DNA from: a virus
Length of the DNA: 64,000 nt
IMG/VR virus record: IMGVR_UViG_3300036826_000357
Coordinates: 21,017 to 85,016 of that record
Direction: 5' to 3' (one strand)
The notes beneath the pieces were generated by a model that saw only the letters and a list, made by a program, of their open reading frames with translations, had not been told where the DNA came from and ran no database searches. A program made the position numbers and the translations under genes. Below are positions 6,068 through 53,980 of this stretch, one piece after another; the first letter of the stretch is position 1, and each line of letters opens with the position of its first letter.

Positions 6068-6085
6068 TTTGACCACGGGGTCAAC
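6068..6085. repeat. degenerate copy (2 mismatches) of the 18-bp palindrome
   Basis: TTTGACCACGGGGTCAAC, intergenic, next to a TTGACAAAG element. Confidence 0.6.
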
Positions 6086-15033: not shown

Positions 15034-15630
15034 TCACTTCGGAGCGAGTTTCTTCGCCACCTTCCTGGCCACCGACTCCGGAACGGCCTGCGCCGGCAGC
15101 TTGAGCGGTTTGAGCTTCGGCTTGTACCGCATCCAGGGACCAATCCCCTGCGTCTGCACCTGTCCATGGGACCGCAGCCAGGCGAGGACACGCTGCGACG
15201 TATGCGTCCGCGTCTTCGAGACTTCCTGAATCTGTGACCGGGTCACCCACCGATCGCCAAGCTTCTCCAAGGCAGCCAGAATCTTTGCCTCGATCGGCGC
15301 GTAATGCGCCTGGTTGTAGCGGTGCAGATCGTAGCCGCGACTCCGGGGCAGACTCACTGCCACCGGAGCCATCGCCAGCAACCGCGCCGGCCGGCGCATC
15401 TTGAGCAGATGCTCATCATCGCCGAATGCCGGGACGCCTTTGAGCCCGTTCTCCCGCGTCAGCCCAAACAGCCGGTCGGCACGGTCAAGACACTTCCGAC
15501 ACAGATCACGAACCAGGGGTTTCCCGTTCGCGTCGATTACCGGCTTCCCGTGTTCATCGAACACCGCTCGCTGCCCAACTGCCGGCACTGCGCCGACATG
15601 CCAATCACACGCAATAATATCAACTTTCAC
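15034..15630 (-). CDS. Lsr2-N-like/Zn + C-terminal winged-HTH protein
   Basis: CD..H/DLC..C N-terminus; ILAALEK..TRSQIQE..SQRVLAWLRSHGQV wHTH. Confidence 0.6.
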   Translation of the reverse strand: MKVDIIACDWHVGAVPAVGQRAVFDEHGKPVIDANGKPLVRDLCRKCLDRADRLFGLTRENGLKGVPAFGDDEHLLKMRRPARLLAMAPVAVSLPRSRGYDLHRYNQAHYAPIEAKILAALEKLGDRWVTRSQIQEVSKTRTHTSQRVLAWLRSHGQVQTQGIGPWMRYKPKLKPLKLPAQAVPESVARKVAKKLAPK

Positions 15631-15639
15631 TGGTAACGA

Positions 15640-15957
15640 TTACCCTCCAGCCGCCCGCTTCAAGCGGACGACGCCTTTCTCTTTTGCTTTCACTTTCACA
15701 GGTTTCCGCGCCGCCAGGATACTCATCCGCGCGTCGGCACGGGAATCAGTCGCGGCGAGATACGCGCGGTAGCCCTCGGAGCGCCGGTAGGTACGCGGGC
15801 GTAATCGCCGGCCGGTGCCGGACCAATACAGCCACGCGTCGCCGTCACAGACGGGACAGTGCACCGCGACCCGAAACTGATTCGGGCCAATTTCCTCGGT
15901 CGCGCCTTCCTTCGCCCACGCGTGATTCGCACCAAAACACCACTCGTAATTCGGCAT
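15640..15957 (-). CDS. hypothetical basic protein with CPVC
   Basis: 105 aa. Confidence 0.6.
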   Translation of the reverse strand: MPNYEWCFGANHAWAKEGATEEIGPNQFRVAVHCPVCDGDAWLYWSGTGRRLRPRTYRRSEGYRAYLAATDSRADARMSILAARKPVKVKAKEKGVVRLKRAAGG

Positions 15958-15981
15958 CAGTTCTGGTCGACTCCCTTTCTC

Positions 15982-16365
15982 CTAGGGACTGTACTCACAG
16001 GCGATATCAAGAAACTCGTCTTCATCCGTTTCAAGTAAGAGCTTCAGCGCCAGCATGTTGTCTCCAGCGGGTGGATGTCGCCGCACGGCGATCCCGTAAT
16101 ACTGATCGGGTACCCGCGTGTGCGGATGCAACCGTGCAACGACTCCACTCCACCAGATGTTGTAGAGATTCCCGTGTTGCGATCGGATGGTGACGTACAT
16201 GACACGCTCGTACTGTCGTGCTTGCCGTGGCGTCAGATAGCTCAGGAGCAATCGCTCCGCGCGAGCTTCGGCTTCGGATCGAGGCATCAGTGCGATACGC
16301 TTCTCGATGGCGGAATCCGGGAAGAGCCACTGTCGGAGCCAGCGTCGAAGCCGCCACAGCACCAT
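15982..16365 (-). CDS. hypothetical protein, paralog B (GDxMLAxKLLLETxE family)
   Basis: shares LL.SYLTP.Q and GD.MLA.KLLLET.E..F with 16368-16838. Confidence 0.8.
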   Translation of the reverse strand: MVLWRLRRWLRQWLFPDSAIEKRIALMPRSEAEARAERLLLSYLTPRQARQYERVMYVTIRSQHGNLYNIWWSGVVARLHPHTRVPDQYYGIAVRRHPPAGDNMLALKLLLETDEDEFLDIACEYSP

Positions 16366-16367
16366 GG

Positions 16368-16838
16368 TCAGATCTTCACCCCCATATATCGTGCCGTCGC
16401 GAAAAACGCGGGCTCGTTCGTCTCCAGCAGTAACTTCACTGCCAGCATGCGATCCCCGTACGGGGGCGCTCCATCAGGATGGATACAGTACCGCACGCGC
16501 TGCGGCTGTTTCCCCTTGACCGGCTTCAGATGCTCCGTCCACGTATGCCGGACGCGGAACTTCCCACCCCGCGAGCCGGTGACTGCGAATTCCCCGTGCG
16601 CTTTGAGTGACCGCTTCTGTGCCGGCGTCAGATAGGACACCAGTAGCTGCCATGCGCGATCCGACTCCGCCGACAGTTTGGCCTGGTACTCTTGCCACCA
16701 CGCTTCATTGACCGGTTGATAATAGGTGCGTGGCGCGGCGATCAGCCGGTCCTGCTCGACGGTGATGGTGAAGTCAATGAACGGATCCCGGTCGAATCGG
16801 AACTCCAGCACACCGTCACCAGTTCGGATTCGCGCCAT
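16368..16838 (-). CDS. hypothetical protein, paralog A (YCIHP motif)
   Basis: same family motifs plus Cys-x-His-Pro. Confidence 0.8.
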   Translation of the reverse strand: MARIRTGDGVLEFRFDRDPFIDFTITVEQDRLIAAPRTYYQPVNEAWWQEYQAKLSAESDRAWQLLVSYLTPAQKRSLKAHGEFAVTGSRGGKFRVRHTWTEHLKPVKGKQPQRVRYCIHPDGAPPYGDRMLAVKLLLETNEPAFFATARYMGVKI

Positions 16839-17117
16839 TCACCCGCCAACGAACGGCCGCGAGAACAGAATCCGCTTCGCCGTGGGATCGAACTCGCGGA
16901 TCTGATCCGGATGCTGACCCTGCTCGTCCGTCTCGAACGCCAGATGCTGCGCCTTCAGCATCGCGTCGAATAACTCGCCGGCCACCCGGACACTCTCGGC
17001 GTCACCTTCCTGCCAGGACAGGCGCGCGTCCCCGCCGATCCACTCGACTTCGGGAAACTGCGCCACGACGGTGCGAGGGAAGCTCTGTGCCGTCCCGATA
17101 ATATTGAACTGTCCCAT
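16839..17117 (-). CDS. small protein ending in Gly-Gly (possible ubiquitin-like modifier)
   Basis: 92 aa ending FDPTAKRILFSRPFVGG-stop, followed directly by the ATG of the next gene. Confidence 0.75.
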   Translation of the reverse strand: MGQFNIIGTAQSFPRTVVAQFPEVEWIGGDARLSWQEGDAESVRVAGELFDAMLKAQHLAFETDEQGQHPDQIREFDPTAKRILFSRPFVGG

Positions 17118-17286
17118 CAGATCGACTCCTTCACCATGCGGTTCGATGTGATTGACGGAATCCCCTTCCCCCGGCCCGTTTCGGGGATCCCGTCACTGCT
17201 TCGTACACTGAGTGCCAGTTCCAATTGCACGACGCCGTGTGCGGCGCACGAACGCCGGCCGGTCCCCGGGGGTGCACCCATTCCGA

Positions 17287-17304
17287 TTTGACCACGTGGT
17301 CAAA
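17287..17304. repeat. 18-bp palindrome copy 2
   Basis: exact match; supplies the TGA stop of ORF 17300-17530. Confidence 0.95.
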
Positions 17305-17530
17305 TGCCTGTCGCGATCCCTGCCGCGCGCAGAAAGCCTGCCGCTAGCTGCCGGCAATGCTCCTTGGACAACGGACTCGTTGCCAGCCGCCGCGTCGGTA
17401 AGCCGGCTCCGCGTTGCACGATCACCAGCCGCGCCGGGAACACGCCATCCGGGGCGATGATTTCCACCTGCCGGCCATCCAGATCGGTCAAGATCGTGAT
17501 GTAGGTGTCGCCCGTCAGTGGATCGTTCAA
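17300..17530 (-). CDS. hypothetical protein
   Basis: AAGGAGG RBS; 76 aa. Confidence 0.65.
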   Translation of the reverse strand: MNDPLTGDTYITILTDLDGRQVEIIAPDGVFPARLVIVQRGAGLPTRRLATSPLSKEHCRQLAAGFLRAAGIATGI

Positions 17531-17559
17531 CGCTGCCTCCTTCCATACGAGTCCAGGTA

Positions 17560-17588
17560 CAGATAATGCCGACTCTGCCTTTTGTCAA
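17560..17588 (-). promoter_or_regulatory. promoter TTGACA-N17-TATCTG
   Basis: TTGACAAAAG -35; would drive 17530 and possibly the GG operon. Confidence 0.55.
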
Positions 17589-17815
17589 CACCCGGGATGG
17601 TGGCTCTGTAAGTGCAGAGCAATCACCAGCCAATCCGCCCCCGCCGCCTGTTCCGCCTCGGTTCCAATCTCGCCGGCACTGAGCTTCCCGAGTGTGGCGA
17701 CCGGGATCATCCGCGTGACGAGACGTTGCCAGCACAGCCGGCAGTACACCGTCGCATGCGGCGGCTCGTCGGTGACGATGATTTGGATCGGCAGCAGATC
17801 GTCGTTCTCAGCCAT
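17585..17815 (-). CDS. small Zn-binding protein (CxxC..HxxxHH)
   Basis: coupled ORF. Confidence 0.55.
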   Translation of the reverse strand: MAENDDLLPIQIIVTDEPPHATVYCRLCWQRLVTRMIPVATLGKLSAGEIGTEAEQAAGADWLVIALHLQSHHPGC

Positions 17816-20997: not shown

Positions 20998-21025
20998 TTG
21001 ACGAAAGTCAACCCCGCCTTACCAT
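20998..21025 (+). promoter_or_regulatory. promoter TTGACG-N16-TACCAT
   Basis: right member of the divergent pair; ATGACAAAG at 21034. Confidence 0.7.
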
Positions 21026-27103: not shown

Positions 27104-27146
27104 GGGCGGGTCAGCCACCAAGTGTGGCCCCGCCCAGCCTCTTTTT
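27104..27146 (+). terminator. intrinsic terminator at the convergence of early and late transcripts
   Basis: GGGCGGG..CCCGCCC stem, then TTTTT running into the palindrome. Confidence 0.55.
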
Positions 27147-27161
27147 GACCACGTGGTCAAA
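27144..27161. repeat. 18-bp palindrome copy 3
   Basis: exact match; contains the TGA stop of the collagen-like gene. Confidence 0.95.
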
Positions 27162-29329: not shown

Positions 29330-32300
29330 CTACGTCACCAGTACCGGGTACGGTCCAAAGGTTCCAATTAGCCGATCTTGAATGTCGTACATGCGGAATG
29401 TGTAGTAGTACGGATTCGGGTCAGTCGCCGGAACCACATCCACCATTGTAAGCAGCGGCAGCGTGTAATCGGAGGGCGTAGTCTCGGCCAGTAATGCCGG
29501 CGTACTCGTGGCTGGTCCCTGCCGCCATATCCGCATCGTTCTGAAGTACCGTGGCAACGGCTCGCGTTGCGTAATCGTCACCTTCATCTGGGTAATCATC
29601 GCAGCGCCGATGGCATCCTGCGTTTTCGGCACCACACCCCAGAACATGTTGCCGACATCATTCACCTGCCACGGACGATTGATGTACGGATTCTGCGGAT
29701 AGCTCCAGATGAGGTTGGAATATGTCGCCCCAACTAAGAAAGAGGTTGCATCGATTCCTGAACCTCCACCGACAAGACTGCCGTACTGCGCGGCATATCG
29801 CTCCGTTCCGGAGCCCGCATTAACCCGCATCCGTGTCAGGAAATCGACATTGGAAATCTCCGCTCCTGAAGCGAGCCCTGCACCAGCAAATCGCATCTTC
29901 ACAGCCGCATTCGCATCACCCGCGATGTACGTTGCATCAGCATCGGGCGGATCTTCATCGATACACTCAGGATTCGTGGCTGGTGGCGGAGGCGTACCAC
30001 CCGGAATGAACCCATGGTTAAAGACTGGATTCGGTGGCGGATCGATTTCCTGTACCGGATACCAATTCGTGACACGGCCAGGAATTATCGTCACTGTGAC
30101 AGTCAGACCATCCACCCGACTTGTCGCTGCCATATTCCCGAATGCCGTTGCTGGCCCCGGAGGCGCGGACGGATCCGCCGGCAGTGGCAACGGATCGTAC
30201 ACATAATCCGCTGCCGTGTAGGGTGTGACCGTGACCTGATTCGCCGCCGACACTCGATTCGACCGCCGGACCCGGGCATCGAATGCCGTCCCAGACCGGA
30301 GTGTTACCTCGATCACTCTCCCCGGGACGATATTCCTTGCCTCGTGTCCCAGCGCTAACTCGATGGTTGCATCATCAGTCTTCCGGCGCTTCGCCCGATA
30401 GCTCCGAATGATATCCGCTGTGACGGGATCGTAGACTAACTGTGTCTGTACTTCCTCGATCTGCTGTCCGACTCCATTGACATCCCCATCGGCAGAACTG
30501 AGCAGGAAGTTGATGACGCGTCCTGTCTCATCCCGCACAGGTTGAAATCTGACCCGTGTCTTGCCGATCGTCTCAGCCAACGATGCGCGAGCTATCCCAC
30601 CGACCTGCGCGATATTCCGCCACGGATCACCAATGGAGAAGGCAGCGTCTGCAATGGAAACTGCCTGGTCGACAGCAGCCGTGACCAGTCCCGCCGATGT
30701 CAACGAATAGCGCAACCCGCGAAATGTACGGAAGTTGTCCATGACTCCATCGGAGCCATCGATGGTTGCAGCATCGGTAAATGCTCCGTCACAGCGGAGC
30801 CCGTGATTTTCAATGCCGGCCGCATCATCTTCTGCGGTATCCCAACTCGTCGGATCGAGTGCCATCCCGGATACGTCGAGTGCTTCCCGCAGACACGTCA
30901 CGAAATTCCGCCGTCCGAGATAGTGTGCACGGCGGTAATACGCGAGGCCGCGTGCCCCACTACTGAATCGGACTGGCCCAAGATCACCTTGCGCACCCGC
31001 CCCGATGGTCGAACTACCACCAAGAATCATCGGATCGGTCGCTTCTGGATCGATCGAGTCTCGCCCGTACTTCACATATCCCCGCCCCGATCGAGGCGTA
31101 GACTGAATCAAGACGCCATTGATGTAGAGGTCGACAGTCGTTGCACCGACATCGACCCCAATGTGCATCCACGTATTCAAGGTAACGTTGGCAGTTTGGA
31201 GTGTAAGTGTCAGTGGACTTGCCCACGTCGCTGGATTTGTCGTGATATCGATGGTGAATTTGATCTTGTTCAGATCGTGGAATAACTGCCAGCCATCCCG
31301 GGGTCCATCGACAATCGCCCCGGTCTCATCCGTCCGCAGCAGGAACCAGACTTCGAGCGAGAACTGATGCAGCGCATACGCATCCCGCGCTGCTACCGAC
31401 TCTGCCATCATCGCTCGCAACGCATTGCAGCGGATGGCTCCATTCCCGTACCGAGATATGCCTGCTACCAGATGACTGGTATTCGCCGTATTCCCAGCCA
31501 TCGCGATGGCATGATGACCGCCGATGTCATCGTAGAGCCCGCGTTGCCAGTCCCATTCACTGACTACCCGCGCATCCACATCCGCCATGAGCCGCTGCCC
31601 ATCGACTACCAACGAACTGACTCCGGCATCCTGCCCGCGAGGATCACGTCCCAGCCGAATAGCCGTCTGATATCTGCCCCCCTGCAAATACGTTCGCTTG
31701 ATGACCTGATAATCCCCTGCTCCGAGTGGTAATCCACCTTGCCGAACTGCCTGCACATGCAGGTTCCCATGTAACACCACAAAGTCGTACAGATCGGCGA
31801 TATTCGACGGTAACCCGCCGAAGATGATTAACTGCCCACTCCCATCGGTCGAAATGGTAATCGGCGCATTCGTGAATGCTTCAGACTCCTTCGCTGCCAA
31901 CTGAAACGTATCGTCATCCAGCACAATCACCCAATAATCCTTGTCAACCACCAATCCTGTGGGCAGCGTCCCATTCACTGCCATCACATGGTACGGTCCA
32001 TTCCCGGTTTGGAAGCCATGTGCGCGCGAACTGAACGAGTCATTCGTGGCCAGGCCGGTGAATCCAATCCGGATTTCCTTGTTCTCGTCGTTCCGCGCCC
32101 GCGCGTATCTGCCCGGGAGTCCCCGATTCACGCCCCACCCATGCGGTACGACGGAGCCGAGACCACCACTCGGCGATCCGTCAGCCGGCGCATACGGATG
32201 CTCCAGCGAATTAATCACGTAGGCAGGGAATACCTCGTTGACTTTGGCAGGATCGAGTGCCGCACAGAGTAACTGAATGGTCTGATCGTCATGTGCCACA

Positions 32301-32776
32301 GCCGCAATGCGGCCCACGGCGATGTTCAGTACCGTCGTATCCGTCAGCACATCGTAGGAATGCACGTTGACCAACCAGCCCCGGACTTCCGTCGATCCGA
32401 TCCAGTTCGTGATGTCCGGCGTGGCAGTCTCGATTGCCCGTAGCCGCAGCCGCACCGTGAACTGCTGCTGCTGAAGATTCCCACCGAAGGAATCCGGCTC
32501 CTCAAGCGTAATGGAAATCGACTCGACTACACGTTTCTCGAAGAGTGCCGGCCCGAATGCCGTGGGATATACGTCCCGCGATGCAAACCGCAGTGGCGGT
32601 AAGGACAAATCCACCGGGAGATTGAGTGTGGTCGAATCCTGGTAGTGAATCTCAACGAGAAAACAGAGACTCGGAGCCGTCAGTAACGGATTCGCTGCGA
32701 CGGGAAGTAATCCACCACCGTCCGCAATACCCCAATCGAATTCTCCCCAGCCCGGACCCTCACCCCATCCAGCCAT
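29330..32776 (-). CDS. tail hub/tip protein with LamG (ConA-like) domain
   Basis: 1148 aa; FSLEVWF..WMHIGV..LYINGVL LamG pattern; downstream of the TMP. Confidence 0.75.
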   Translation of the reverse strand: MAGWGEGPGWGEFDWGIADGGGLLPVAANPLLTAPSLCFLVEIHYQDSTTLNLPVDLSLPPLRFASRDVYPTAFGPALFEKRVVESISITLEEPDSFGGNLQQQQFTVRLRLRAIETATPDITNWIGSTEVRGWLVNVHSYDVLTDTTVLNIAVGRIAAVAHDDQTIQLLCAALDPAKVNEVFPAYVINSLEHPYAPADGSPSGGLGSVVPHGWGVNRGLPGRYARARNDENKEIRIGFTGLATNDSFSSRAHGFQTGNGPYHVMAVNGTLPTGLVVDKDYWVIVLDDDTFQLAAKESEAFTNAPITISTDGSGQLIIFGGLPSNIADLYDFVVLHGNLHVQAVRQGGLPLGAGDYQVIKRTYLQGGRYQTAIRLGRDPRGQDAGVSSLVVDGQRLMADVDARVVSEWDWQRGLYDDIGGHHAIAMAGNTANTSHLVAGISRYGNGAIRCNALRAMMAESVAARDAYALHQFSLEVWFLLRTDETGAIVDGPRDGWQLFHDLNKIKFTIDITTNPATWASPLTLTLQTANVTLNTWMHIGVDVGATTVDLYINGVLIQSTPRSGRGYVKYGRDSIDPEATDPMILGGSSTIGAGAQGDLGPVRFSSGARGLAYYRRAHYLGRRNFVTCLREALDVSGMALDPTSWDTAEDDAAGIENHGLRCDGAFTDAATIDGSDGVMDNFRTFRGLRYSLTSAGLVTAAVDQAVSIADAAFSIGDPWRNIAQVGGIARASLAETIGKTRVRFQPVRDETGRVINFLLSSADGDVNGVGQQIEEVQTQLVYDPVTADIIRSYRAKRRKTDDATIELALGHEARNIVPGRVIEVTLRSGTAFDARVRRSNRVSAANQVTVTPYTAADYVYDPLPLPADPSAPPGPATAFGNMAATSRVDGLTVTVTIIPGRVTNWYPVQEIDPPPNPVFNHGFIPGGTPPPPATNPECIDEDPPDADATYIAGDANAAVKMRFAGAGLASGAEISNVDFLTRMRVNAGSGTERYAAQYGSLVGGGSGIDATSFLVGATYSNLIWSYPQNPYINRPWQVNDVGNMFWGVVPKTQDAIGAAMITQMKVTITQREPLPRYFRTMRIWRQGPATSTPALLAETTPSDYTLPLLTMVDVVPATDPNPYYYTFRMYDIQDRLIGTFGPYPVLVT

Positions 32777-32779
32777 AGA

Positions 32780-33106
32780 TCACGGATTCTTCGGTGGGCA
32801 TTGCGATAGCAGGATTTTACACGATCCCAGATCGATCTGCGGATCACGCGGACGTAACTTCTTCCGTTTCTCGGTAAGCTCATTCAGCTTTGTGTTACAG
32901 GGGTCGAGGAGCGTACAGGGTCCGGGACGCCCGGCACACATCTGAAGCGCCGCTTGGACACACTCGTCAACACGAATCTGCTCCAGAAGGATCTGCTCCT
33001 CCAATTCCAGACCCCAGACCTGCGCACCACAGACATCGTAGACACGCTGGCACACACCCTCATTAAACGTCGCGGCCAGGAGAATCCCTGCGAGAATCAT
33101 CATCAC
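32780..33106 (-). CDS. small Cys-rich exported protein
   Basis: hydrophobic N-terminus, 8 Cys. Confidence 0.6.
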   Translation of the reverse strand: MMMILAGILLAATFNEGVCQRVYDVCGAQVWGLELEEQILLEQIRVDECVQAALQMCAGRPGPCTLLDPCNTKLNELTEKRKKLRPRDPQIDLGSCKILLSQCPPKNP

Positions 33107-36100
33107 ATCACCGTGTCAAAGCTAACATAGAGAGCACACGAAGCAGCAGTAGCAGCCAACGATGTACCGACCACGGAGACCTGTTTCATGGTAAAGCGAT
33201 CCCCAAGTGCAAATGCAATCGGTGCACTCGCTGAACCCGCTGCTGGTGTACACTGCTGAACACCCGCAGTCATCTGACAGAGCATGGTTGTATCAGAACT
33301 GCCACCTGCACTGCCTCCAGTACCCTTCCGCACAGTAAACGTGCGCGTGGACGTACCACCGGGAGTATCACTCGCGGTGCAGGTCATCTTCCAAATAGTT
33401 CCTGCTCCAACAATCACACTCCGGAAGTTGTTCTCCGTCGCATTGTTGTCGTTTCCCCACAACGAGCTAAACAACGTCTGCGCCGTGGTCAGCAGAATCG
33501 GGAAGTCAGTCCGCGCGATCGAGCCATTCCGCAACGAGATCGATCCGAACGATCCCTGGTAGTTGGCAATCGAGCCCACAGATGCTGGTGTCGGCCACCG
33601 ATAAAAGCCATTGTCTGCGACATCAACGTTAACGACATTCGCTGTACCCGCAGTCGGGAACTTGATTGCCGTTGAATTCGTGCTGTTCGATCCATCGAAA
33701 ATATTGCTGACGATCTGGCTGCCAGTAATCACCATATTGCCAAGAGATTGTGGCCCAACCATGTCAACTCCAATGATACTGTCTACAGTACCACCAGGAA
33801 ACACGGTATTCAGCGCAATATTCAGATTCGTGTGCGGGCTGGTAGCGCCGTAGTCAGACAAGCGGAAAAACGCAGTCGGCGTCCGAGCCAAGCAGCTACC
33901 AGCAGTACAGCAATATTTGCCCGCCTCAGATCCAGTCTGACAACAGGTGATAGCACCACCAGGGCAACCACCTAATGTGCCGGTACTACACGTCGCACCA
34001 CCATTACACGTAGACGTGGCCGTCTCACATAATTGTCCCGCCGGGGTCGTACCACACTGCTTCACAGGCTGCTGCGACGGCATGAACACCACATTCTTTG
34101 CGTACGTGTTATGCGTCGTCCCACAACCACCACCAGTACATCCCGCATGACCAATCCACGCGAATGCCGGCTCTGGTACACACTTGAAGGTCACCGAGCA
34201 GGTACCACAATCCGCGTCGCTATTGCACTGATTCCCACGGTTTGGAACAGCGCAGGATGGATCACATGTCGTCGTCGGCCGCACGGAATTACTTGAGTTA
34301 CAATAGTTCCCATCTACGAAGACACCTGCACCACCGAGATTGAAGCAGGCTCCTGCCTGCGACACAATACGATTCGCAACGTACTGTGTATTATTCAATG
34401 ATCCACTCGGCGCGTTTTCAGCCGTGATGCCACGCCACCCACCTTGAATATGATTCAGCCCAACACGATTCTGCGATCCCGCTGAGCCCAGCTTTATACC
34501 GATCCCATGAGCAGCCGGTAATTGAGTCCCCTGCGAAAACCCTATCCTATTATTGGAAATCAACGCATTCGCCGTATCATGATTGCTGATTCCGATCTGG
34601 TTACCAATCACACCATTATCCTTGATCGTGTTATCAGCGATGAGAACATCAGTTCCGGTGCTCTCGATGCCTATTCCATTCCCACCAAGCTCTTTGATCG
34701 TGTTACTGACAATGTGCGAATTCACGGCGGTCGAATCGATCCCCTTCGCATAAGACTGCAAGCTATTACTCCCCAGCTTATTGGCAATCACTCCTGCATC
34801 GTCACCAGTCAGCGAAATCCCCGTGCATCCAGTCCCAAGATTCAGCGCCTGCGATTTAGCGACCTGTCCGTATGTACTGATAACGAAGCCACAGGCAGCC
34901 GTCCCAGGCCCATTGAGAGATGGAGGCCACACCGTCGACTCATCAATACGTGTCTGCGCAGCAGCATTGAATGAGAACGACTTCCCACGAGCGTACGTAC
35001 GAATCAGCTGAGAGTCAGACCCGACCTTCATACCGTAAAACACATTCGTGGTCGGCTGCGTGTTGTTCTTGTTGGCTGCTGCGAACGCATTGTTCGCAGC
35101 ACCGTAACAGCACGTTCCACCATTCAACCCTGCCGACAGACACCGAGAATCTGTCGGTGTCGCGAATGGTGACGTACAGTCCGTCAGTTCCCGCGCTGCA
35201 TTCACATTGACTAGTGTCGACTGATTTCCCACACTAAGTGAGAAGCCCGAAGAACTGTTCGGCGTGACGAAATGATCGTAGATGCTGACATTCGTCAGCT
35301 TCGCATTCGTGGTTGATGTCAAATCCAGCGGGATGATATTCCCCGGTCCCGATGGCGAGAGCGGAGCACCAGTACACGATCCACCACCCGTCGTGCAATT
35401 CATCTTCGACAGATCGCAGGTACCCGATATACAGTCACCATTCACATCACATCGTGCTCCTGGCAATGTCGACCCCGTAGAACATTCCTGCCGGCACGGC
35501 TTCCCAGGATTCGAGCCACCCACACAGCGCTGGAACGGATCGGCCTGAGCCGCCCAGATCGAGCAGTTCTCAATGAAAATGTCGCTCGATGCTCCTCCAC
35601 TATCCTTCAGCATCGTGTAGGTCTGTCCCGCAGTCGGTGCGAAACACGTTGTTGCCGTACACGCAGCACCTGCTCCTGCTCCGAAACTGCTCACACACGT
35701 TCCAGAGCCAGGGCAATCTGCGTTCGTATTACATGTCGCACCACCGAACGGAGCGAAGGCACTCGCACTCGCCCCGAATGTACCCGTCGAACAATACTGC
35801 TGCTGCGCGAAGAAGCCGGCACTCTGATCTGCACACACAATGTGCACGTTGTTCGGGATGAGAATGGACGCTGCTCCTGCACCAGGAGACTTCAACCCAA
35901 GCTTGCAGCCACCCGGTATGTAGATAGTCGCTCCAGTCGACCCCAGCGCGTTCAGGGCTGCCTGCACTCCAGCCGTGGAATCTGTCAGGCCGGAACAATC
36001 AACTCCAGGCGTTGCCGTGATACTGGTCGTAGAAATGGTATCCCACTGCAATACATCGCCGGTATGCCAGACAAGTACATCACCATTGATCGGGACATCG

Positions 36101-37344
36101 GATGGCAACTGATACGTCCGATTGGCTGTGAGACTGGCAGTCGCCGGAGCCTTCAACCCGACAAAGTTCGAGTTATCGGTATCCCGCCAGCGAAACTCCC
36201 CACCACCCTGAACAGTCGGTGTGGAGCCACTTGAAAAGGTCACTCCACCACTGCCACCAACAGCAATAGCATCCGTCGTCCCAGTGCTATCACGGATGAC
36301 CACGTTGTCCCCGACGAGAAACCGAGCAATACCACCCTCATCATGGATCGAACAGGTCGAACTGACACTGCCATCACCATTGCACCGGAACCGCGTTGCG
36401 CCGTCGTTATCACGGATAACGGTATCGCCACTGTTGTTCACTGAAAACCGCGTTGCAGCTCCTCCATTAGTAATCACGCGGAACTGTCCAGTACCGGGTG
36501 CTAACTGAACGTCGAAGAGACCGTTGGTAGCAGAATTAATGCGGATCGACGCCAAGGCGAAATTCAATCCCGTGCTCTGCGAGACGGTAAATTCATCGTT
36601 GTTGTTCGTATCGTTGCCAACTGACCATACGTTGTCACCGGCAAAACGAATCTCTGCATTCACCGTTGCCGGCGTTGCCGATGTCACTATCAGCGGATTG
36701 GAGACTCCACCACCAGTTCCACACGGCTGCCAGGCAAACGTCGTCCCGGTCGCCTCATACGTTAGACAGTAGCCATCGACCTGTCCCGCCGACTTGATCG
36801 CATTCGGCGTCACGAGGTCGTTGGCCAGACTGCATGTACCGCCGATCACACCCAGATCGGAAATCGTGCACGTCGCATTGTCGATAACGTTCCCCGTCGT
36901 CCCGTTGAACCTCGCAATCTGATTGTCAACATACGTCCCCGCTAGACTCTGCACATCAGCAGCAGAATTCCCGAAACAGCCAACTGTCGTCCAAACCTGG
37001 CTGTCATTGATGTACGTCAAACACGTTGTTCCCGGCGTTCCCGTCCCTGCCGTGCACGCAGTCGTCGTGCAGTCAGTGACAATGTAGACCTTCGACAGCG
37101 TCACACTCGATGCAGTCGGCCGGTTCACAAACAGACCTGCTTGGAACCGACGCGACTCGTCCTGATTCGCCCAGTTCCAGTAATACTGCGGATACGATGC
37201 TGCCGGTACGCCAACACCGACCTTCGGAATGCGTAGAATGTCGGTAAACGACACCGTGCCAGGACTGGGATCCGGGTCCGCTCGCGCGTACCCAACCACC
37301 AGCACCATCACCAGCAGGATAAGCCCCCTAAATCGGGTCCACAT
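33103..37344 (-). CDS. large Cys-rich right-handed beta-helix protein (tailspike/adhesin-like)
   Basis: DSTAGVQAALN..G.TIYIPGG pectate-lyase-like start, NxI/GI repeats, Cys repeats, N-terminal signal-like segment. Confidence 0.75.
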   Translation of the reverse strand: MWTRFRGLILLVMVLVVGYARADPDPSPGTVSFTDILRIPKVGVGVPAASYPQYYWNWANQDESRRFQAGLFVNRPTASSVTLSKVYIVTDCTTTACTAGTGTPGTTCLTYINDSQVWTTVGCFGNSAADVQSLAGTYVDNQIARFNGTTGNVIDNATCTISDLGVIGGTCSLANDLVTPNAIKSAGQVDGYCLTYEATGTTFAWQPCGTGGGVSNPLIVTSATPATVNAEIRFAGDNVWSVGNDTNNNDEFTVSQSTGLNFALASIRINSATNGLFDVQLAPGTGQFRVITNGGAATRFSVNNSGDTVIRDNDGATRFRCNGDGSVSSTCSIHDEGGIARFLVGDNVVIRDSTGTTDAIAVGGSGGVTFSSGSTPTVQGGGEFRWRDTDNSNFVGLKAPATASLTANRTYQLPSDVPINGDVLVWHTGDVLQWDTISTTSITATPGVDCSGLTDSTAGVQAALNALGSTGATIYIPGGCKLGLKSPGAGAASILIPNNVHIVCADQSAGFFAQQQYCSTGTFGASASAFAPFGGATCNTNADCPGSGTCVSSFGAGAGAACTATTCFAPTAGQTYTMLKDSGGASSDIFIENCSIWAAQADPFQRCVGGSNPGKPCRQECSTGSTLPGARCDVNGDCISGTCDLSKMNCTTGGGSCTGAPLSPSGPGNIIPLDLTSTTNAKLTNVSIYDHFVTPNSSSGFSLSVGNQSTLVNVNAARELTDCTSPFATPTDSRCLSAGLNGGTCCYGAANNAFAAANKNNTQPTTNVFYGMKVGSDSQLIRTYARGKSFSFNAAAQTRIDESTVWPPSLNGPGTAACGFVISTYGQVAKSQALNLGTGCTGISLTGDDAGVIANKLGSNSLQSYAKGIDSTAVNSHIVSNTIKELGGNGIGIESTGTDVLIADNTIKDNGVIGNQIGISNHDTANALISNNRIGFSQGTQLPAAHGIGIKLGSAGSQNRVGLNHIQGGWRGITAENAPSGSLNNTQYVANRIVSQAGACFNLGGAGVFVDGNYCNSSNSVRPTTTCDPSCAVPNRGNQCNSDADCGTCSVTFKCVPEPAFAWIGHAGCTGGGCGTTHNTYAKNVVFMPSQQPVKQCGTTPAGQLCETATSTCNGGATCSTGTLGGCPGGAITCCQTGSEAGKYCCTAGSCLARTPTAFFRLSDYGATSPHTNLNIALNTVFPGGTVDSIIGVDMVGPQSLGNMVITGSQIVSNIFDGSNSTNSTAIKFPTAGTANVVNVDVADNGFYRWPTPASVGSIANYQGSFGSISLRNGSIARTDFPILLTTAQTLFSSLWGNDNNATENNFRSVIVGAGTIWKMTCTASDTPGGTSTRTFTVRKGTGGSAGGSSDTTMLCQMTAGVQQCTPAAGSASAPIAFALGDRFTMKQVSVVGTSLAATAASCALYVSFDTVM

Positions 37345-38278
37345 AACCCCTCGCATACAATGCCACAGTGTTTCCACCGCCCGTCCCGTTCCACTGCGCC
37401 CGAAATATCTGTGTTGAATCCACTTCTATATCGATTACATACGACACCAATATGGGCGAGTTTGTGTGGATCATCCCCCAGGTACCAGTACCAGCCGTTC
37501 CATTCAGTACGTTACACTGCTGGCCAGCATTCGCATTCGCAATCGGCACCACAAAAATCGTGGCTATGCGCGATGTCGGCGGAATGTACTTCTTGACGTC
37601 GACATTTTGCACCGTCGAGACAGTATTCGTTACATTAACGCTGTAGCTTGAATTCGCATCTGTACCGTCCATTCGATAATACACATGGTCATCTTCCTGA
37701 ATGAACTGAAGGAAGTTGCTCGACGCATTGTTCCGAACGGCTCCAACTCGGACCCATTTCGTGTACCCCGTCACTGTCGCATGCGTGAGTACCAACCCCG
37801 CCCGTGTGTTCTGCTTCGAGAGTAGGAAGCCGATGTTCCCGGCCGCATTCACACCGACCCAGACATAGTACCAAAAATTGGCATCCTCTGGATCGGCACC
37901 GAGATTATCAAACCCATTCAATCCATTGACCGTAATATCAACTGATCCACTAACAGCCTGTACGATCGTACCTTCGATCCCGAGTAGGTCTGCCGTAATG
38001 TCGAGCTTACTGTTCGGCGCAGCATTGTTATTGACAATCCGCAGTGCCCGGCGTCCCACACGAGAATTCAGTATCAACGCACTCTGTGCCGCCTGAATCC
38101 GTGCACCGACATCGGCATACACAGTTCCATCCACCGACGAAATGTGCGGATTCGCCCCCAACGTGGCGAGTGCTGCGAACAACTCCTCGACAACCTGTAG
38201 CCAATCTGCCGGCGTCACCTGCGCATCCTTCAATGCCGCAGAAGCAGTCGGAACAATCGGTGGATATTGCGCCGCCAC
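37328..38278 (-). CDS. minor tail / fibre-like virion protein
   Basis: G.NG.D..WYYVW..GYT...RVGAVR motifs seen in phage fibre proteins. Confidence 0.7.
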   Translation of the reverse strand: MAAQYPPIVPTASAALKDAQVTPADWLQVVEELFAALATLGANPHISSVDGTVYADVGARIQAAQSALILNSRVGRRALRIVNNNAAPNSKLDITADLLGIEGTIVQAVSGSVDITVNGLNGFDNLGADPEDANFWYYVWVGVNAAGNIGFLLSKQNTRAGLVLTHATVTGYTKWVRVGAVRNNASSNFLQFIQEDDHVYYRMDGTDANSSYSVNVTNTVSTVQNVDVKKYIPPTSRIATIFVVPIANANAGQQCNVLNGTAGTGTWGMIHTNSPILVSYVIDIEVDSTQIFRAQWNGTGGGNTVALYARGYVDPI

Positions 38279-41200
38279 TTACCCCCTCCCCCCCGCGCGC
38301 CGCGTGATTCCCGGCAACGCCTGCTTCACCTGTGCACTGAACCCACTACTCGCCGACCGACCATACAGCTTCGCCTCTGCCATCGACTTCGGCTGCGGCA
38401 TGACAATCGTCGGCTGGAAAATAAACGTGGGCTCATGCGCTCCCCCATTACGCGGTACCGGCCGATCCAATCCCAACAATCGCCGACCCCGTGGACTCTC
38501 TAGCGGAATGATAACTTCAGGCTTGTTCCCCTCTCCTGCACGAATGATCGAATCCCGCAGAATAATCCCACCTTCCGCCGCTGCTGCCGTCGTCCGATGC
38601 CGTTTTCCCGGCCTCGGCGGGATGTTCAGACTCTTCGAGAAACCCTCCAGGTAATCCTCGATCGACTGCAACGTCTCCAACTGCGCCTGTGCCAAGAAGG
38701 CTTGTAACGAGGACGGATCGTTAATCAGCGCATCGATATCGGTTCCCGGCGGAACGATTGCCTTCAACTGCTCGCGAAGATTGCCGATTTGCGCCTGCAT
38801 CAACGGCACCGCCTTATCAGACCAAATCTTCAACTGTGCGGCCAATTTCTGGTTCACTTCATCGATCTTTTCGGCTTGCGCTTTGGCAATCGCCCGGTCG
38901 GCATCATCAAGTGGCTTCCGCTTGTCATCGATAATCTGCTGCGCATCAGCCAAATCACGGAGCCGCTTCGTATGCCCCTCGATCTTCTCGTTGTCTTCCT
39001 TGATCTTCTTCTGATAGCCCTTGATTTCCTCCTGAATTCCCTTGGCTTCCTCATCGATGCTCTTAATATCGGCAAGTATTTTCGTGCGCTCGTCCTCTGC
39101 TGCCTGCGCCGTTTCGAGCACCCCTTCGATGGCTGCAAGCGATTGCTGCCGGAGCCGGGTCAAATCCCGGGAGCCTACGGAGTAGAGTTTCTGGCCTTGC
39201 TCGACTGCCAATCCAGCCAGCCGCTGCACTTCCGCCCCAGCAGTTGCTTTCTTTTGCAGATCGGTCTCGCCCTGGAACTGCGCGACGGCTTCCCCGAGCT
39301 TCTGCCGGGTCTGTGCCAGTTCCGCGAAGCCGCCTCCCTTGATTGTGCCGGTGAGCGACTCCTTCATCTGCTTCAGACCATCAGTCAGGTCTGCCAGCGG
39401 ACTAATGTCACTCAGCCGATCCTGTAGCTTCGATCGCCGATCAGCTAGCTCATCGAGCTTATCCTGCCGTGTCTCGATTTCCTTCTGATTCTTATCGATA
39501 TCATCCTGTAGATCGCGAATGGCACGCTGCTCAATCCGAGATTCCCGCTCGATAGCTTCGGTATACGCATCCAACACATCCCGTTGCCGCTGAATGGCAT
39601 CGTGATATGCCTGCGCCTGCTCATTGATGTCCTGAATCGTTGCCTGCGCCTGTGCCTGCAACAACTGCAATTGCCGATTCACCAACTCCAACTGCGCGCC
39701 GGCACTCGATCCAGCCGTGACCAGATCGTTGTATTTCTTCTCGTTGTCGTCCAAGAACGACTGGTATTTCTGCCCGGTATCCGTCGCACCAGTCAGTCCA
39801 TCAATCGTCTCGAACATCTGAATCTGGAAGTCTTGGAGCCCGCGCTCTGCCTGCCGAATCTGATCCACCAGATCACTGACGGTCTTCGCCCATGCTTCCG
39901 TGGCCTGCTTGAGCGCCTCCATCTGGTCTTTCGCTTCATCAAGTGCCTCCTGCTTCCTCTTCGTCTTCTTCAGCTTTGGCACTTCCTCCTGAAGCTGATC
40001 CAGCCGCTTGCGAGCACGCGCCGCGTCTTCCGTGGCCTGCTTCGCCTGCACAACTGATGTCGTCCCGGTCAATTGACCGACAATCATTTCCCGCGTCCGC
40101 ACGACATCGCGCTCCTGATCGAGCAGTGTCGTGGCCAATGCCGTTCGCCGCTCCCGCCGTGCCCGCGCCTTCTTCCCGCCACCACGCTTCGTCTGGACTC
40201 GATCCACGTAGTCTTCGAGATTCGTCAAGAAGTCTGCGGGAAGCTCCGTAACGTCAAGCCCACGCGCTTCCACCAGCGTCTTCACCGTCATGGCTTTCCG
40301 GACTTCTTTCGATATCTCCTTCACGGTAATATTCGGGTCGTTTTTCCGTAGCTGATCCACCAATGCGGCGACAGCCTTCGGATCACCCGTTGCCTTCCCA
40401 AAAGCGGCCACAATTTTGAGTACCCGATCACCGAGTCGATTCGCCTCCTTCGTGGTAAACTCGGCACCATCCTCGATCGCCTGGAGCACCGCATCGCGGG
40501 TCTGCTTGCGAACTTCGGGCATATTCACGCCGCCCCGTTTGTTCACATTCGCAGCAAAGATGGCTCCCAGATCCACGCCGGCAATATCGAATGCTGCCCC
40601 GAACTGTTGATACCCTATACGTCGCTTGGCGAGCACTGCTTCCGGCCGGTCTTTATCGCCCTTCCCCTTCATCTTGGCGACGGCAGCCTCGTAGGCATTC
40701 GCCTGGTTCAGCACGTTATAGATGGTACCGAACTGCAACCTCGTGAGATTCCGAATCGCTTTATTAACCGCTTCCTGATCTGCTCCACGGCGCGCGAGGA
40801 CATTGAAAATCATGTTCTCGAAATTGCCCGCTAAATCCGGTCTGCGGAGTGCCACCGGCCCCATCGATGCAACTGTCGCACGCCCGAACAGCCCAATGGC
40901 TCCCCCACCCGCCATATCGACCCGTGCCTTCGCTTCCCGGCCGGTGATGTATTGCCCCTTATCCACCCCCGTCTTAATCCGTACCCGAGTCGGCACGCCT
41001 GCGCCTTTGTAATCGCCCATGGATGGCGTGACATTGGCACCCATAATGGTGCTGAGCCGTTCAGCGAACTGCTCCTTCAATAGTTCCCGAATATCCGGCT
41101 TCGGTGCAGTCGCACTGATGATCGCGCCAATAATCGCCAGCACCGCCGCGATGACCCAGCCAATAACCGGCACAATCCAAATCGCCGCCGCGACCGCGAA

Positions 41201-44200
41201 CAATCCCGCTGCTGCACCAATTGCCGCCCCGGCTTTGCCTTGTGACGTTTTTGCCTCGATGGCCCCCTTGATCCCCAGCCCCAACCCAGCGAGACCGCCA
41301 ACAACACCCACCGCTCCCAGAGCAGACCCAGCCGCCGACCCCCCTGCCGCTCCCGCAGCAGCAGCACCGCCCTGCGCCGCTGCTTGCCCAGCCGCCGCAG
41401 CTGTCGGTGCCGCAATCACGCCCACCGCTTGCCCAATTGCCTGCGCAGCTGCTTTGACGGCGACCACTAAAGAATCGAGCACCGGCCCAATCACCGGAAT
41501 CTTGCCGAAAATACCGGCTGCGCCCGCTATTCCCCCTCCCTGACCTGAGAAACCCAACGCATTCAGAAGCAGGTTGGCCCCTAAGTTCCCTGGCGTCGCA
41601 GACAACCCCGAGATACCCGGACCGACCTGCGACAGCACACCAAGCTCGGACAGGAAATTGCCAAGACCTTGCACACCACCGAGTATGCCGAGTGCAGCAC
41701 CGCCGGTATCGAGAAGTCCACCCTTCCCTTTCATCAGGGTGAAGACTCCCCCGACGATACTCAGCAATGGCCCGGCGATCTTGATAACGGTCTGGATTCC
41801 ACTGAAAAGCTTATCTAATCCAAGACCCTTGAATCCGTTCTGAATCCCCTCCGAAACAGCACTCCCGAACAGCTTTTCATCAACGAAACTGGCCGTCCCG
41901 AGAACACCCGGTACCCTTGCCGCCCCCGCGAGAACTCCGCCACCACCAGTCCGCTGAGCAACGGCTGCCGCACCACCACCACCACCACCGAACAGACTCG
42001 ACACCAACGTCGCGACCCCACCGAGTGCACCGACAATCGATCCCCCACCCGATCCACTGAGTAGCTTCAGGAATCCCGCTGCGAAGCCGATCAGCTTCTC
42101 GAACACCGACTTCCCCGTCGAAATAAGAAAGTCGAAGAAGCTGCCCCAGCCACCCTGCGCTTCCGTACCGGCATCACTGACTGCCTGCGCCGCCTTCTCG
42201 GCAGTCGGTCCGACCGTCTCCAATGCCTCCGCAGCTTGCTTCACTGCCGGCTCGACCGTCAGAATAGTCTTGCCGGCCGCGTCGGTACTCGACTTTACGA
42301 CCCCAACAATGTTCGTGAAGGTCTCTTTCGTATCTTCTTGGATGAGACCCAACGCAACGCCGAACTGATGGACGAGACCTTTCTGGTCGGTGAAGAGGTT
42401 TTTGGAAATAATCCCTTCAAAATCGAGCTTGTTCTTGATCGTGGTGGAGAAAATGCTCTTCAGGATACCGATCCCGGAGTCGGCAAACTTCTTCAGCGTG
42501 TCCTTCGACTTCCCGAAATCGAACAATCCCTCGGTAATCAGATCACCAAATGCATCCTCGATCTGCCGGCCAACCTCCGCCGTCTCCTTCCCCAACTCCT
42601 TCACATGGTCGAGTTGGGCATCGAGCACCGGAATCCCAGCCTGAAGAATCGCCAGCCGCTTCTGATCCTGCTCGACGGCAAACTTCGTCTGCTCCACCAG
42701 TGCCGGAGCAATAGTCCCCGCCCTGAGATCCTCTTGCGTGCGCGCAATCGAATTCTGCAACGCCTGGATATCGATCTGTAACGCCGCCTTCTTCAACTCG
42801 ATGATGCGCCGCTGAATATCTTGCCGCTGCGTGATCGAATGCTCTTCCTCCAGCCCAAGCTGAAGAATCTCAACGGCATTCCCAATCTGCGTCTTCGTGA
42901 GATCGGCGGTTTGCTGCTCCGCTTGCGCTGCCTGTGTCCGGACCCGAGCAGCCTCCTGATACCGGCTCTGAAGGATGGCATTCTGATCGGCGGCTGCCGT
43001 ATTGGTCTGTAAATCAACGGCCAGTGCCTGCCGCTTCAGTCGCAGTTGCTGATCCAGCTTCTCCACTTCGGGCTGCTGACCCAATGCCGCCGCCTGTGCC
43101 CGGAGGTTTTCCAATGACTTGATCTCGTTCTGAAGTTTCTCCCTTCCCAAATCCCGCAGATTCGCTTCGAGCCCCTGAATCCGCTTCATTACATCTTCGC
43201 GCTGTTCCTGTGTCTGGACATTCTGTAGCTGAATCTGCGCATCAGCGATGGATTGCCTCACTCCCGCTGCACGAACATCAACTTCACCCTGCGTAACTGC
43301 CAATGTCTTGTCGGCTGCGTCTTTGATGTCGTTGTATTTCGCCAGTGATTGATCGAGTAGGCCCACTTCGACGGTCTTTGCCTGGTTCGTACTGACCTGT
43401 GTCTGGAGTCGGCTCTGCTCCGCACGCAACCGGGTCTCTTCCCGATCCAATGCCTCCGGATCAATGGGTGGCGGCTGTAATCCCTCCAACGGTAACCGTG
43501 CGAGTGCCTCCCGCTTCTGACGAATATTCTCCAATGCCTCCGCTATCTTCACTAACCGTGGTGCTGCATCCGTGCCGATCTTCTGCGTCGCTTCGTCAGT
43601 CTTCCGCTGAATCGTCCCAATCGCCCCGGCAATGCGCTCCGTGCGTGTCCCAAATGCCGCGATCCGCGCATCGAGATCTGCCGCCGAATCCTGCAATTCC
43701 AGCCGCAACCCACGCGCCTGCTGAATCGCGTCCCGCACACCGTCATTGAATTTCCGGAAATCGAGTCCCAACGCATCCCGCGTGACTTTGGAAATCGTCT
43801 GGCCGAGATAGCCAAACTCCACGTTCATCTCTCCGGTCGATTGGGCGGTCTCCTTCTGCTGCAAGTTGACTTCATTGAGTACCAGCAGCCACGTCTTGAG
43901 ACCTTCCTCCGTCCGCATCCCGGAATCACGCATTTCCCGATTGTGCGCCGTAGCGAGCTTCGCAGATTCCACGAATTCCTTTCCAAGAATCCGCGACACT
44001 TCCATCGTCGCCACACCCAACAACTTCTGATGCTCCGCTAACCGCGCATTCGATTCCCCCCAATCCGCCTGCACTTCAACTAACTGCCTCTCCTCCTCCT
44101 GAAGTGCCGTCAACTGACTCTGCAATTCCGCGATGTGCTGATCGATGACTTGGACCTGATTTCCGACAACCTCCGGGCCAAGACCAATCGCGATCTGCCG

Positions 44201-53962: not shown

Positions 53963-53980
53963 TTTGACCACGTGGTCAAA
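53963..53980. repeat. 18-bp palindrome copy 4 (extends to 22 bp)
   Basis: exact match; intergenic, just after the capsid stop. Confidence 0.95.

Follow-up and report, generated by a model that had tools for sequence, protein, structure and literature searches.

A tightly linked phage gene pair encoding a protein with a terminal Gly-Gly and a cysteine-bearing partner: a possible ubiquitin-like module

Does a phage own a ubiquitin-like (Ubl) modifier together with a dedicated protein that receives its tail? The question is raised by three adjoining genes in a stretch of viral DNA of 64,000 nucleotides, called the window in the following (positions 21,017 to 85,016 of the IMG/VR virus record IMGVR_UViG_3300036826_000357). 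The genes encode a 92-residue protein that ends in Gly-Gly, a 156-residue partner with a Cys-x-His motif, and a 127-residue paralog of the partner. An earlier note, made from the letters alone, had read them as a modifier with an active and a pseudo-enzyme partner. To our knowledge, the known bacterial Ubl conjugation systems (Bil, Bub, and Cap2/Cap3 of the cyclic oligonucleotide-based antiphage signalling system, CBASS) are owned by the host and directed against phages, and all of them encode their own activating enzyme (E1), except the CBASS type that has only a protein of the conjugating-enzyme (E2) kind. Here, the first two genes are found to form a real, widespread and tightly linked module, which is present in soil phages and in mobile elements of other kinds, and we tentatively propose that the module is Ubl-like and E2-like.

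A linked gene pair found in soil phages and on other mobile elements

The three open reading frames (ORFs) are located on the minus strand (Table 1), and the sequence claims of the earlier note held there. The ATG of the 156-residue ORF abuts the TGA of the 92-residue ORF without a spacer and in the same frame (16836-16844), and the 127-residue ORF starts 2 nt past the stop of the 156-residue ORF. The two larger proteins were confirmed as paralogs, with 36% identity over 97 residues (BLASTP, E 3e-11); the motifs LL.SYLTP.Q and GD.MLA.KLLLET.E..F are common to both, and RYCIHP in the 156-residue protein aligns with YYGIAV in the 127-residue one. A Gly-Gly ending is by itself unremarkable, being found in 2 of 92 crudely called ORFs of the window (the 92-residue protein and the next gene downstream).

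The partner family was collected by an exhaustive hidden Markov model (HMM) search with the alignment of the 156- and 127-residue paralogs against cluster representatives. As many as 5,241 representatives were retrieved at E<=1e-3, 610 of them at E<=1e-10, and all of these relatives match the C-terminal ~95 residues only. In the best 150 members, counted in the numbering of the 156-residue protein, Cys118 is present in 148 and Asp129 in all 150, followed by Pro126 (145/150), Lys135 (141/150) and His120 (113/150), and the conserved motif reads Y-C-I-H-P-x4-P-x2-D. The two members without a cysteine at the Cys118 column are the window's 127-residue paralog and P0016; the latter has a cysteine four residues later, and the paralog is effectively the sole Cys-less member seen among the 150. 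The N-terminal regions of the partner proteins vary from 0 to 308 residues. In 63 of 148 relatives (P0004-P0151), a Ser/Thr-rich N-terminus carries 2-4 W-x-x-W motifs, usually followed by a charged helical linker; this repeat was matched to no repeat type, and the window's 156-residue protein has a short beta-rich N-terminus instead. Single sequences retrieved little: word-index searches matched each protein to itself only, and a single-protein scan of viral contigs gave no close relative for the 156-residue protein or for a nearby 378-residue protein.

The earlier note had let its proposal depend on conservation of Gly-Gly among homologs and on genomic linkage of the two families, and both were found. 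Of 24 distinct small proteins at the loci, 22 end in GG, one in AG and one in GGSR. The 119 further database homologs end in GG (105), AG (5), GG plus 1-10 residues (7), PG (1) or otherwise (1), which places GG or AG at the exact C-terminus in 110 of 119. Proline occupies position -6 in 98 of the 105 GG tails, Met or Leu position -4 in 80 of them and Arg or Lys position -3 in 20, and the tail consensus of the small family is [I/M]-I-[M/L]-[V/A]-P-[P/Q/A]-[M/L]-x-G-G. The window tail S-R-P-F-V-G-G is a slightly shifted variant of it. The same pattern is displayed by the ThiS-family proteins of the metagenome-assembled genomes (MAGs) that carry the small family, which end in LPAVAGG, FFPPVTGG, LPPVSGG or LPPFAGG.

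The linkage was followed in two sets of loci, one of 19 viral loci (about 15 distinct) from a pattern scan of IMG/VR, and one of 9 cellular loci from a scan of species-representative genomes, belonging to Actinomycetes, Acidimicrobiales and one alphaproteobacterial MAG. The domain gene is immediately preceded by a small-protein homolog in 18 of the 19 viral loci, the nineteenth (L012) being cut off 39 nt before its domain gene, and in 9 of the 9 MAG loci; linkage thus holds for all 27 loci in which upstream DNA is present. The spacing between the two genes ranges from -10 to +88 nt and is mostly 5 nt or less. When all ORFs at all loci were clustered, the small and the domain families alone were common throughout, and a conserved third gene was thus rejected. 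A conserved read-through or frameshift was rejected as well, since the frame relation of the two genes varies between loci; in the window itself, read-through of the TGA between the 92- and 156-residue ORFs would yield a fused protein, a relation not kept elsewhere. It is the conservation of GG or AG in 110 of 119 homologs, together with the linkage of the two families wherever upstream DNA is present, that exceeds chance.

In five MAG genomes, the small family is confined to the domain loci, with three copies in one genome and one copy in each of the others, and a search of two bacterial classes, with 200 other genomes from each, did not detect it. The domain is also carried by 12 plasmid records of Bradyrhizobium, which are large plasmids of cultured strains. 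In the conjugative plasmid p195_1 of Bradyrhizobium sp. 195 (NZ_CP082162.1; L064 3650-4333), a 73-residue protein ending in FFPRLVGG precedes a 137-residue Cys-bearing partner, with 48 nt between the genes and both annotated as hypothetical; the accessions of this pair are WP_247973535.1 / WP_346732911.1. A tblastn search of 50,697 deposited phage records gave nothing for the 92-residue protein, the 156-residue protein, a 370-residue relative or P0004. The neighbours of the pair in phage loci are of the early/replication type (HNH, DNA polymerase A, NAD ligase and phosphoesterase).

Four profile libraries gave no name for the gene pair. The three window proteins had no significant match in Pfam, PHROGs or NCBIfam and none at all in PADLOC. 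When 100 members of the domain family and 15 of the small family were compared with Pfam, neither set gave a recurring match. For these 15, no Pfam family was significant; six families were hit by one member each at E 0.07 or worse, one of the six being a weak helix-turn-helix model (HTH_56, E 0.083), and PF02597 (ThiS/MoaD) was hit by 0/15 at E<=1. Full-text searches of the literature listed no description of a phage protein that ends in Gly-Gly and has a Cys-bearing partner, although supplementary family tables of the Bil, Bub and CBASS papers or of PMC1779556 could name the family.

Predicted folds and the predicted complex

The AlphaFold2 model of the 156-residue protein, built from a 100-sequence alignment, has a mean predicted local distance difference test (pLDDT) of 84, and exceeds 90 over most of residues 45-153. 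It consists of helices at 45-68 and 72-81, strands at 83-87, 93-97, 104-106 and 115-118, a helix at 127-148 and a last strand, and the loop C118-I-H-P-x4-P is placed between strand 4 and the long helix starting near D129. In a VIA-align comparison with 48,161 chains, independent of Foldseek, in which a Z of about 8 is the level called distinctive and a lower one may be a common arrangement, the single chain at Z>=5 was Ubc9 (4y1l_C; Z 5.3, root-mean-square deviation 2.9, 84 residues aligned). The other rows spanning the domain were the RWD domains 2daw (4.9), 7e2k (4.8), 2yz0 (4.7), 2dax (4.3) and 2ebm (4.1) and the UEV-like VPS37A (3.9), and the rest of the listed rows match only the long helix 43-83. 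The re-scored Foldseek candidates included CENP-O/P, the C-terminal domain of Mad1, UBE2A (Z 2.9) and UBE2T (Z 2.6). A BFVD search returned uncharacterized phage proteins only, one of them from Agrobacterium phage Atu_ph07 (E 0.044), and an ESM Atlas search returned only clusters named 'hypothetical protein'.

The modelled order of helix, four-stranded meander, short proline-containing loop and long helix resembles that of RWD and UEV domains, and RWD domains make up five of the seven VIA-align rows that cover the whole domain. The H-P-x4-P of the partner is similar to the Y-P-x3-P motif known from RWD domains. The partner fold is probably RWD/UBC-like, with weak support from the model. The Cys-less 127-residue paralog is a further likeness, since UEV and RWD domains lack the cysteine too; by contrast, the module family keeps it in 148 of 150 members, and the Z scores are low. 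As for the suggestion of an active enzyme and a pseudo-enzyme, the near-invariant cysteine, the weak E2, RWD and UEV matches and the Cys-less paralog fit it, while no membership in the E2 families was found by sequence. For the other possibility raised in the note, a decoy against host Ubl defence, PADLOC offered no match.

For the small protein, the family alignment indicates the element order strand-strand-helix-strand-strand-strand, which is compatible with a beta-grasp. A profile search of the small family against sequences of the Protein Data Bank (PDB) gave no Ubl. Of the beta-grasp-type modifier that had been suggested, the terminal Gly-Gly after a hydrophobic strand stood, but the low-confidence model gave no beta-grasp match, and no ThiS/MoaD profile match was seen beyond the tail; a beta-grasp fold is thus putative, and only size, element order and tail speak for it.

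The two proteins were then modelled together, with residues 40-156 of the partner and the small protein represented by alignments A2 and A3, respectively, in three runs with three controls. The complex score was 0.92-0.93 in the three runs versus 0.00 for the best of the three controls; in the benchmark of this score, the mark was reached by 58/80 solved complexes and by 2/110 mismatched pairs. The partner had a pLDDT of 94 in the complex, which comprises about 102 contacts, and at least 98% of the contacts agree between the runs. The predicted interface is formed by partner residues 54-71, 118-126 and 128-150 with residues 5-12, 27-30, 61-72, 84 and 86-92 of the small protein, and Phe89 of the latter packs in the model on partner residues 119-121, 133, 134 and 137. 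The tail is thus placed by the model in a groove that the Cys loop forms with the Asp-capped helix, with its residues 86-92 against partner residues 118-126. The modelled interface covers most of the conserved positions of the family, namely the Cys loop and the helices 54-71 and 128-150, and in the alignment the 127-residue paralog keeps the helix residues of the interface, without the Cys and the His. A specific heterodimer with the Gly-Gly tail on the Cys loop is strongly predicted by these models (score 0.93), which supports binding.

Explanations for the tail and the cysteine

The reading that we tentatively favour, at somewhat less than an even chance, is that of an undescribed two-gene module of a Ubl-like and an E2-like protein, in which the tail would be activated by a host E1, passed to the partner Cys and delivered to a target. 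Conjugation by the module is unproven. The first gene would provide a core protein of ~70 residues, the exact C-terminus of which is a hydrophobic strand and then P-x-hydrophobic-x-Gly-Gly, as in sulfur carriers of the MoaD/CysO type. The second would provide a variable N-terminal region and a constant RWD/UBC-like domain of ~95 residues, in which the near-invariant Cys ends strand 4 and the invariant Asp caps the next helix. In the specific heterodimer predicted for the two, the Gly-Gly tail would occupy the groove that separates the helix from the Cys loop. A host enzyme of the MoeB/ThiF type is proposed to activate the tail, because the phage has none; the tail may then be handed to the partner Cys as a thioester and delivered to a target picked by the variable N-terminus of the partner. 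The 127-residue paralog, which keeps the binding helices without the Cys, could be a regulator or a binder without catalysis, in the manner of UEV proteins. A bolder version, which we consider doubtful, is a self-contained tagging device of two proteins, carried by soil phages and some plasmids, in which a MoaD-mimicking modifier would hijack the host MoeB/ThiF-type E1 and a mini-E2 with a non-canonical Cys would tag host or phage proteins selected through its variable N-terminus, with Cys-less copies like the 127-residue paralog tuning the process.

The absence of E1 and JAB genes that the earlier note had reported for the window was confirmed and extends to the whole 85-kb record, in which neither ThiF (PF00899) nor Prok-JAB (PF14464) was found. 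The full-length records of five phages that carry the pair were scanned for the same two families, and only one phage (G002, 199.6 kb) has both, about 6 kb from its Gly-Gly/Cys pair. This cluster (G002:C1; L023 1127-2580, about 126.9-128.3 kb) adjoins an HNH gene and comprises a JAB peptidase of 123 residues, an 89-residue ORF ending in FGK, and a ThiF-like E1, which is short (191 residues) and matches the E1 part of CBASS E1-E2 models. ThiF-family genes were found in 14/14 control cellular genomes; therefore, a host E1 would always be at hand, and its use by the module is what we infer.

A number of results weigh against a Ubl-like and E2-like module. ThiF and JAB were both absent from 4/5 of the phage records searched, including one rated 92% complete, and with no E1 in the phage record the activation would therefore have to be borrowed. 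The fold assignment of the partner is affected by the best Z of 5.3, which falls below the distinctive level of about 8, and by the lack of any hit at E<=0.001 when the 156-residue model was compared with the PDB by Foldseek. At the sequence level, UQ_con, RWD, UEV and Prok-E2 were not among the 25 families listed of 85 in a Pfam search with 100 members at E<=5, and hhalign of the domain with three Prok-E2_B sequences gave a probability of 0.2%. The cysteine itself is placed unlike that of a classical E2: it precedes His-Pro by two residues, and the invariant Asp stands nine positions past the His, whereas in classical E2s the catalytic Cys follows the H-P-N motif by some ten residues. Displacement of the Cys has been recorded for bacterial E2-like domains (PMC1779556, Table 1 row 6c). 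For the small protein, hhalign with 20 ThiS-family sequences aligned the last 15 columns only (probability 13%, P 0.002). Its single-sequence AlphaFold2 model, made without an alignment, had a pLDDT of 61; with this low-confidence model, Foldseek gave nothing at E<=0.001, and the best 50 VIA-align rows were ferredoxin-, KH- or PII-like over residues 1-66, with no beta-grasp among them. Finally, because the interface is large and uses most of the conserved residues, the conservation could reflect an obligate non-covalent dimer. On balance, the interpretation of the earlier note is partly supported.

Another explanation is an obligate non-covalent heterodimer with, for example, a regulatory, anti-defence or assembly role, in which Gly-Gly would be retained solely to let a slim tail with a free carboxylate pass through a narrow groove, the Cys would be buried, with a structural or redox role, and no conjugation would take place. 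We regard it as unlikely. It would account for the very large and confident predicted interface (about 102 contacts, score 0.93), for its spanning most of the conserved positions of the family, and for the lack of an E1, a JAB or another enzyme linked to the pair. A precedent may be seen in the bacterial operons with non-catalytic RWD-type domains thought to bind Ub-like moieties, described in PMC1779556; the bacterial RWD-like domains are treated there by Iyer, Burroughs and Aravind (2006). Nevertheless, Cys in 148/150 and Asp in 150/150 divergent members exceed the usual demands of packing, and the 7 of 119 small proteins with 1-10 residues past GG resemble precursors that need trimming. Moreover, GG or AG at the exact end in 110/119 is the hallmark of chemically used carboxylates, as in Ub, SAMP, ThiS and MoaD. 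A chemically used tail might instead serve a sulfur-carrier pair like MoaD-MoaE, ThiS-ThiG or CysO-CysM, in which the host makes a thiocarboxylate, the tail enters the partner, and the Cys and Asp move the sulfur to a small molecule or a nucleic acid. The tail P-[P/Q/A]-[M/L]-x-G-G matches the ThiS-family tails of the same MAGs, hhalign aligns exactly the last strand and the tail (P-value 0.002), and the likeness to the MoaD/CysO/ThiS family (PF02597) extends to the P-x-hydrophobic-x-G-G at the exact C-terminus, a similar size, and a gene coupled to that of the tail-receiving partner; translational coupling and the predicted tail insertion resemble carrier-synthase pairs, as these are generally known. 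This explanation is quite improbable, however, in view of a partner domain of only ~95 residues, with no MoaE, ThiG, CysM or other synthase fold among the matches listed, and of variable partner N-termini that look like targeting or adaptor parts rather than a metabolic enzyme. In addition, no profile similarity was seen beyond the last 15 columns, no MoeB/ThiF adjoins the pair, and a biosynthetic pathway is expected to be inherited more regularly than a module that was missing from 200 other genomes of each of two classes.

The tail might also be used without any E1. In E2-only CBASS (type II short), a lone bacterial E2, acting as a protease, removes the residues C-terminal to a glycine of CdnG and becomes covalently linked to it, as described in PMC12948482. 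By analogy, the Cys domain of the pair would be a peptidase that cuts after Gly-Gly and links covalently without ATP. The resemblance includes an E2-fold protein with no adjoining E1 gene that acts on the C-terminal glycine region of a partner encoded next to it, and a stable complex with this dedicated partner through the C-terminal part of the latter, the first of which is proposed and the second predicted for the present pair. Extensions past GG in 7/119 small proteins agree with such a transfer, and the window ORFs, which lie in one frame with the TGA alone between them, could give a fused precursor by read-through. On the other hand, 105/119 small proteins end exactly at GG and therefore offer no peptide bond for the Cys domain to cleave, the frame relation of the two genes is not conserved across loci, and no fused form of small protein and partner domain was present among 148 domain proteins. 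CdnG differs as well, being in the account cited a nucleotidyltransferase of ~400 residues with residues cleaved past the Gly, whereas the protein here has ~75 residues and mostly ends at GG; E2-only CBASS is a bacterial defence system while the module is mainly phage-borne, and neither PADLOC nor Pfam gave a significant match. An E1-independent transfer is thus very improbable. Gene order, translational coupling and the tight predicted complex would fit, finally, an addiction or abortive-infection module of the toxin-antitoxin type, in which the small upstream protein would neutralise a larger toxin encoded downstream. The same is true of the patchy distribution in cellular genomes, of the presence of the pair in phages and conjugative Bradyrhizobium plasmids, and of its three copies in a single MAG. 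In spite of this, a toxin-antitoxin module is extremely improbable: the small protein has no significant Pfam match (best E 0.07) and therefore no DNA-binding domain, PADLOC gave no match, no toxin-like family or fold was found for the partner, and in its long N-termini, which are variable and of low complexity, the partner differs from type II toxins. Furthermore, we know of no role for a strict Gly-Gly terminus in the known antitoxins.

If the pair is a Ubl-like and E2-like module run on a host E1, as we tentatively favour, its close counterparts would include the Bil (BilABCD) and Bub operons, in which an E2-fold protein is also accompanied by a small protein of the Ubl type that has a C-terminal glycine, and which are likewise located on mobile or immunity-related DNA. 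They encode their own E1 and peptidase, in contrast to the two genes of the module, for which E1 and JAB genes were found in 1/5 phage records only and none was linked. In addition, Bub works through oxyesters, according to PMC11601596, whereas the nucleophile candidate of the module is the Cys that ends strand 4. A phage-encoded parallel is provided by the tail-assembly proteins TAPI (Ub-like) and TAPK (JAB plus NlpC/P60) of lambda and T1, where a conserved C-terminal glycine and an adjoining partner predicted to act on it are described in PMC1779556. In that description, TAPI is fused to a further domain and located among tail genes beside peptidases; the present pair has no peptidase domain and is found amid genes of the early/replication type (ParB-like, HNH, DNA polymerase A, ligase).

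The surrounding locus and the meaning of the pair

The record from which the window was taken has 85,016 bp and is rated 69% complete, and the G+C content of the window is 59%. The stretch is also present in two soil-metagenome DNA runs, which are possibly its source, and no RNA dataset was listed for it. Three features are particular to this window, namely the Cys-less second paralog, the shifted tail and the in-frame TGA-ATG junction.

Table 1. Positions of the three genes, of their key residues and of the palindrome copies, in window numbering
Feature	Position	Strand	Basis and remarks
92-residue small-protein gene	16839..17117	-	ORF; ~70-residue conserved core, tail ...RILFSRPFVGG, then TGA
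Gly91-Gly92 codons of the 92-residue protein	16842-16847	-	Read from the ORF; TGA stop at 16839-16841
156-residue partner gene	16368..16838	-	ORF; N-terminal beta-rich extension (residues 1-36) and conserved C-terminal domain
Conserved domain of the 156-residue protein, residues 45-153	16380..16706	-	AlphaFold2 model, family alignment
Cys118 codon of the 156-residue protein	16485-16487	-	Read from the sequence; His120 codon at 16479-16481
127-residue paralog gene	15982..16365	-	ORF; Gly replaces Cys, Ala replaces His; interface helix residues kept
16-nt perfect palindrome TTGACCACGTGGTCAA	17288-17303		Distal end of the 182-nt gap that precedes the three genes
Copies of palindrome TTGACCACGTGGTCAA	1052-1067, 6069-6084, 17288-17303, 27145-27160, 53964-53979, 57464-57479		Repeat count

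The palindrome that had been reported upstream of the genes is there, as one of 6 matches in the window (5 exact and 1 with one mismatch) versus 0.01 expected. It is a repeated element and probably serves as an operator to which a phage regulator binds. Just upstream of the start of the small gene, an imperfect 13-nt inverted repeat (TGACGGAATCCCC / GGGGATCCCGTCA) is located at 17153-17195, with its arms 17 nt apart. A scan of 15500-17600 for promoters and terminators gave nothing beyond chance. The next gene downstream (15640-15957, minus strand) encodes a 105-residue protein that ends in ...RLKRAAGG and has a CPVCDG motif; no homolog of it accompanies the module at other loci. A ParB-like gene is located near the three genes, yet a PRTRC-like cassette was rejected, as no NCBIfam match was obtained. 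Farther away, three very long minus-strand ORFs lie in a row at 29330-45847 (1,148, 1,424 and 2,522 residues) and presumably encode tail or structural proteins.

The module thus has thousands of relatives, mostly in uncultured phages. It unites two hallmarks of Ubl conjugation systems, an invariant free Gly-Gly tail and a partner with one invariant cysteine that is predicted to hold this tail, and has no further component. Chemical use of the tail would mean that phages own a minimal machinery for protein tagging or sulfur transfer, which would probably depend on an enzyme of the host and would bear on the origin of E2 enzymes from RWD-like binders. Should the pair be a tagging device, it would be the first ubiquitin-like conjugation system of a virus of bacteria and the smallest known. 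Without such chemistry, the pair would still be a large family with a defined complex, in which an invariant Cys and an invariant Asp call for an explanation. The plasmid copies in cultured Bradyrhizobium make the question of the tail chemistry directly testable.

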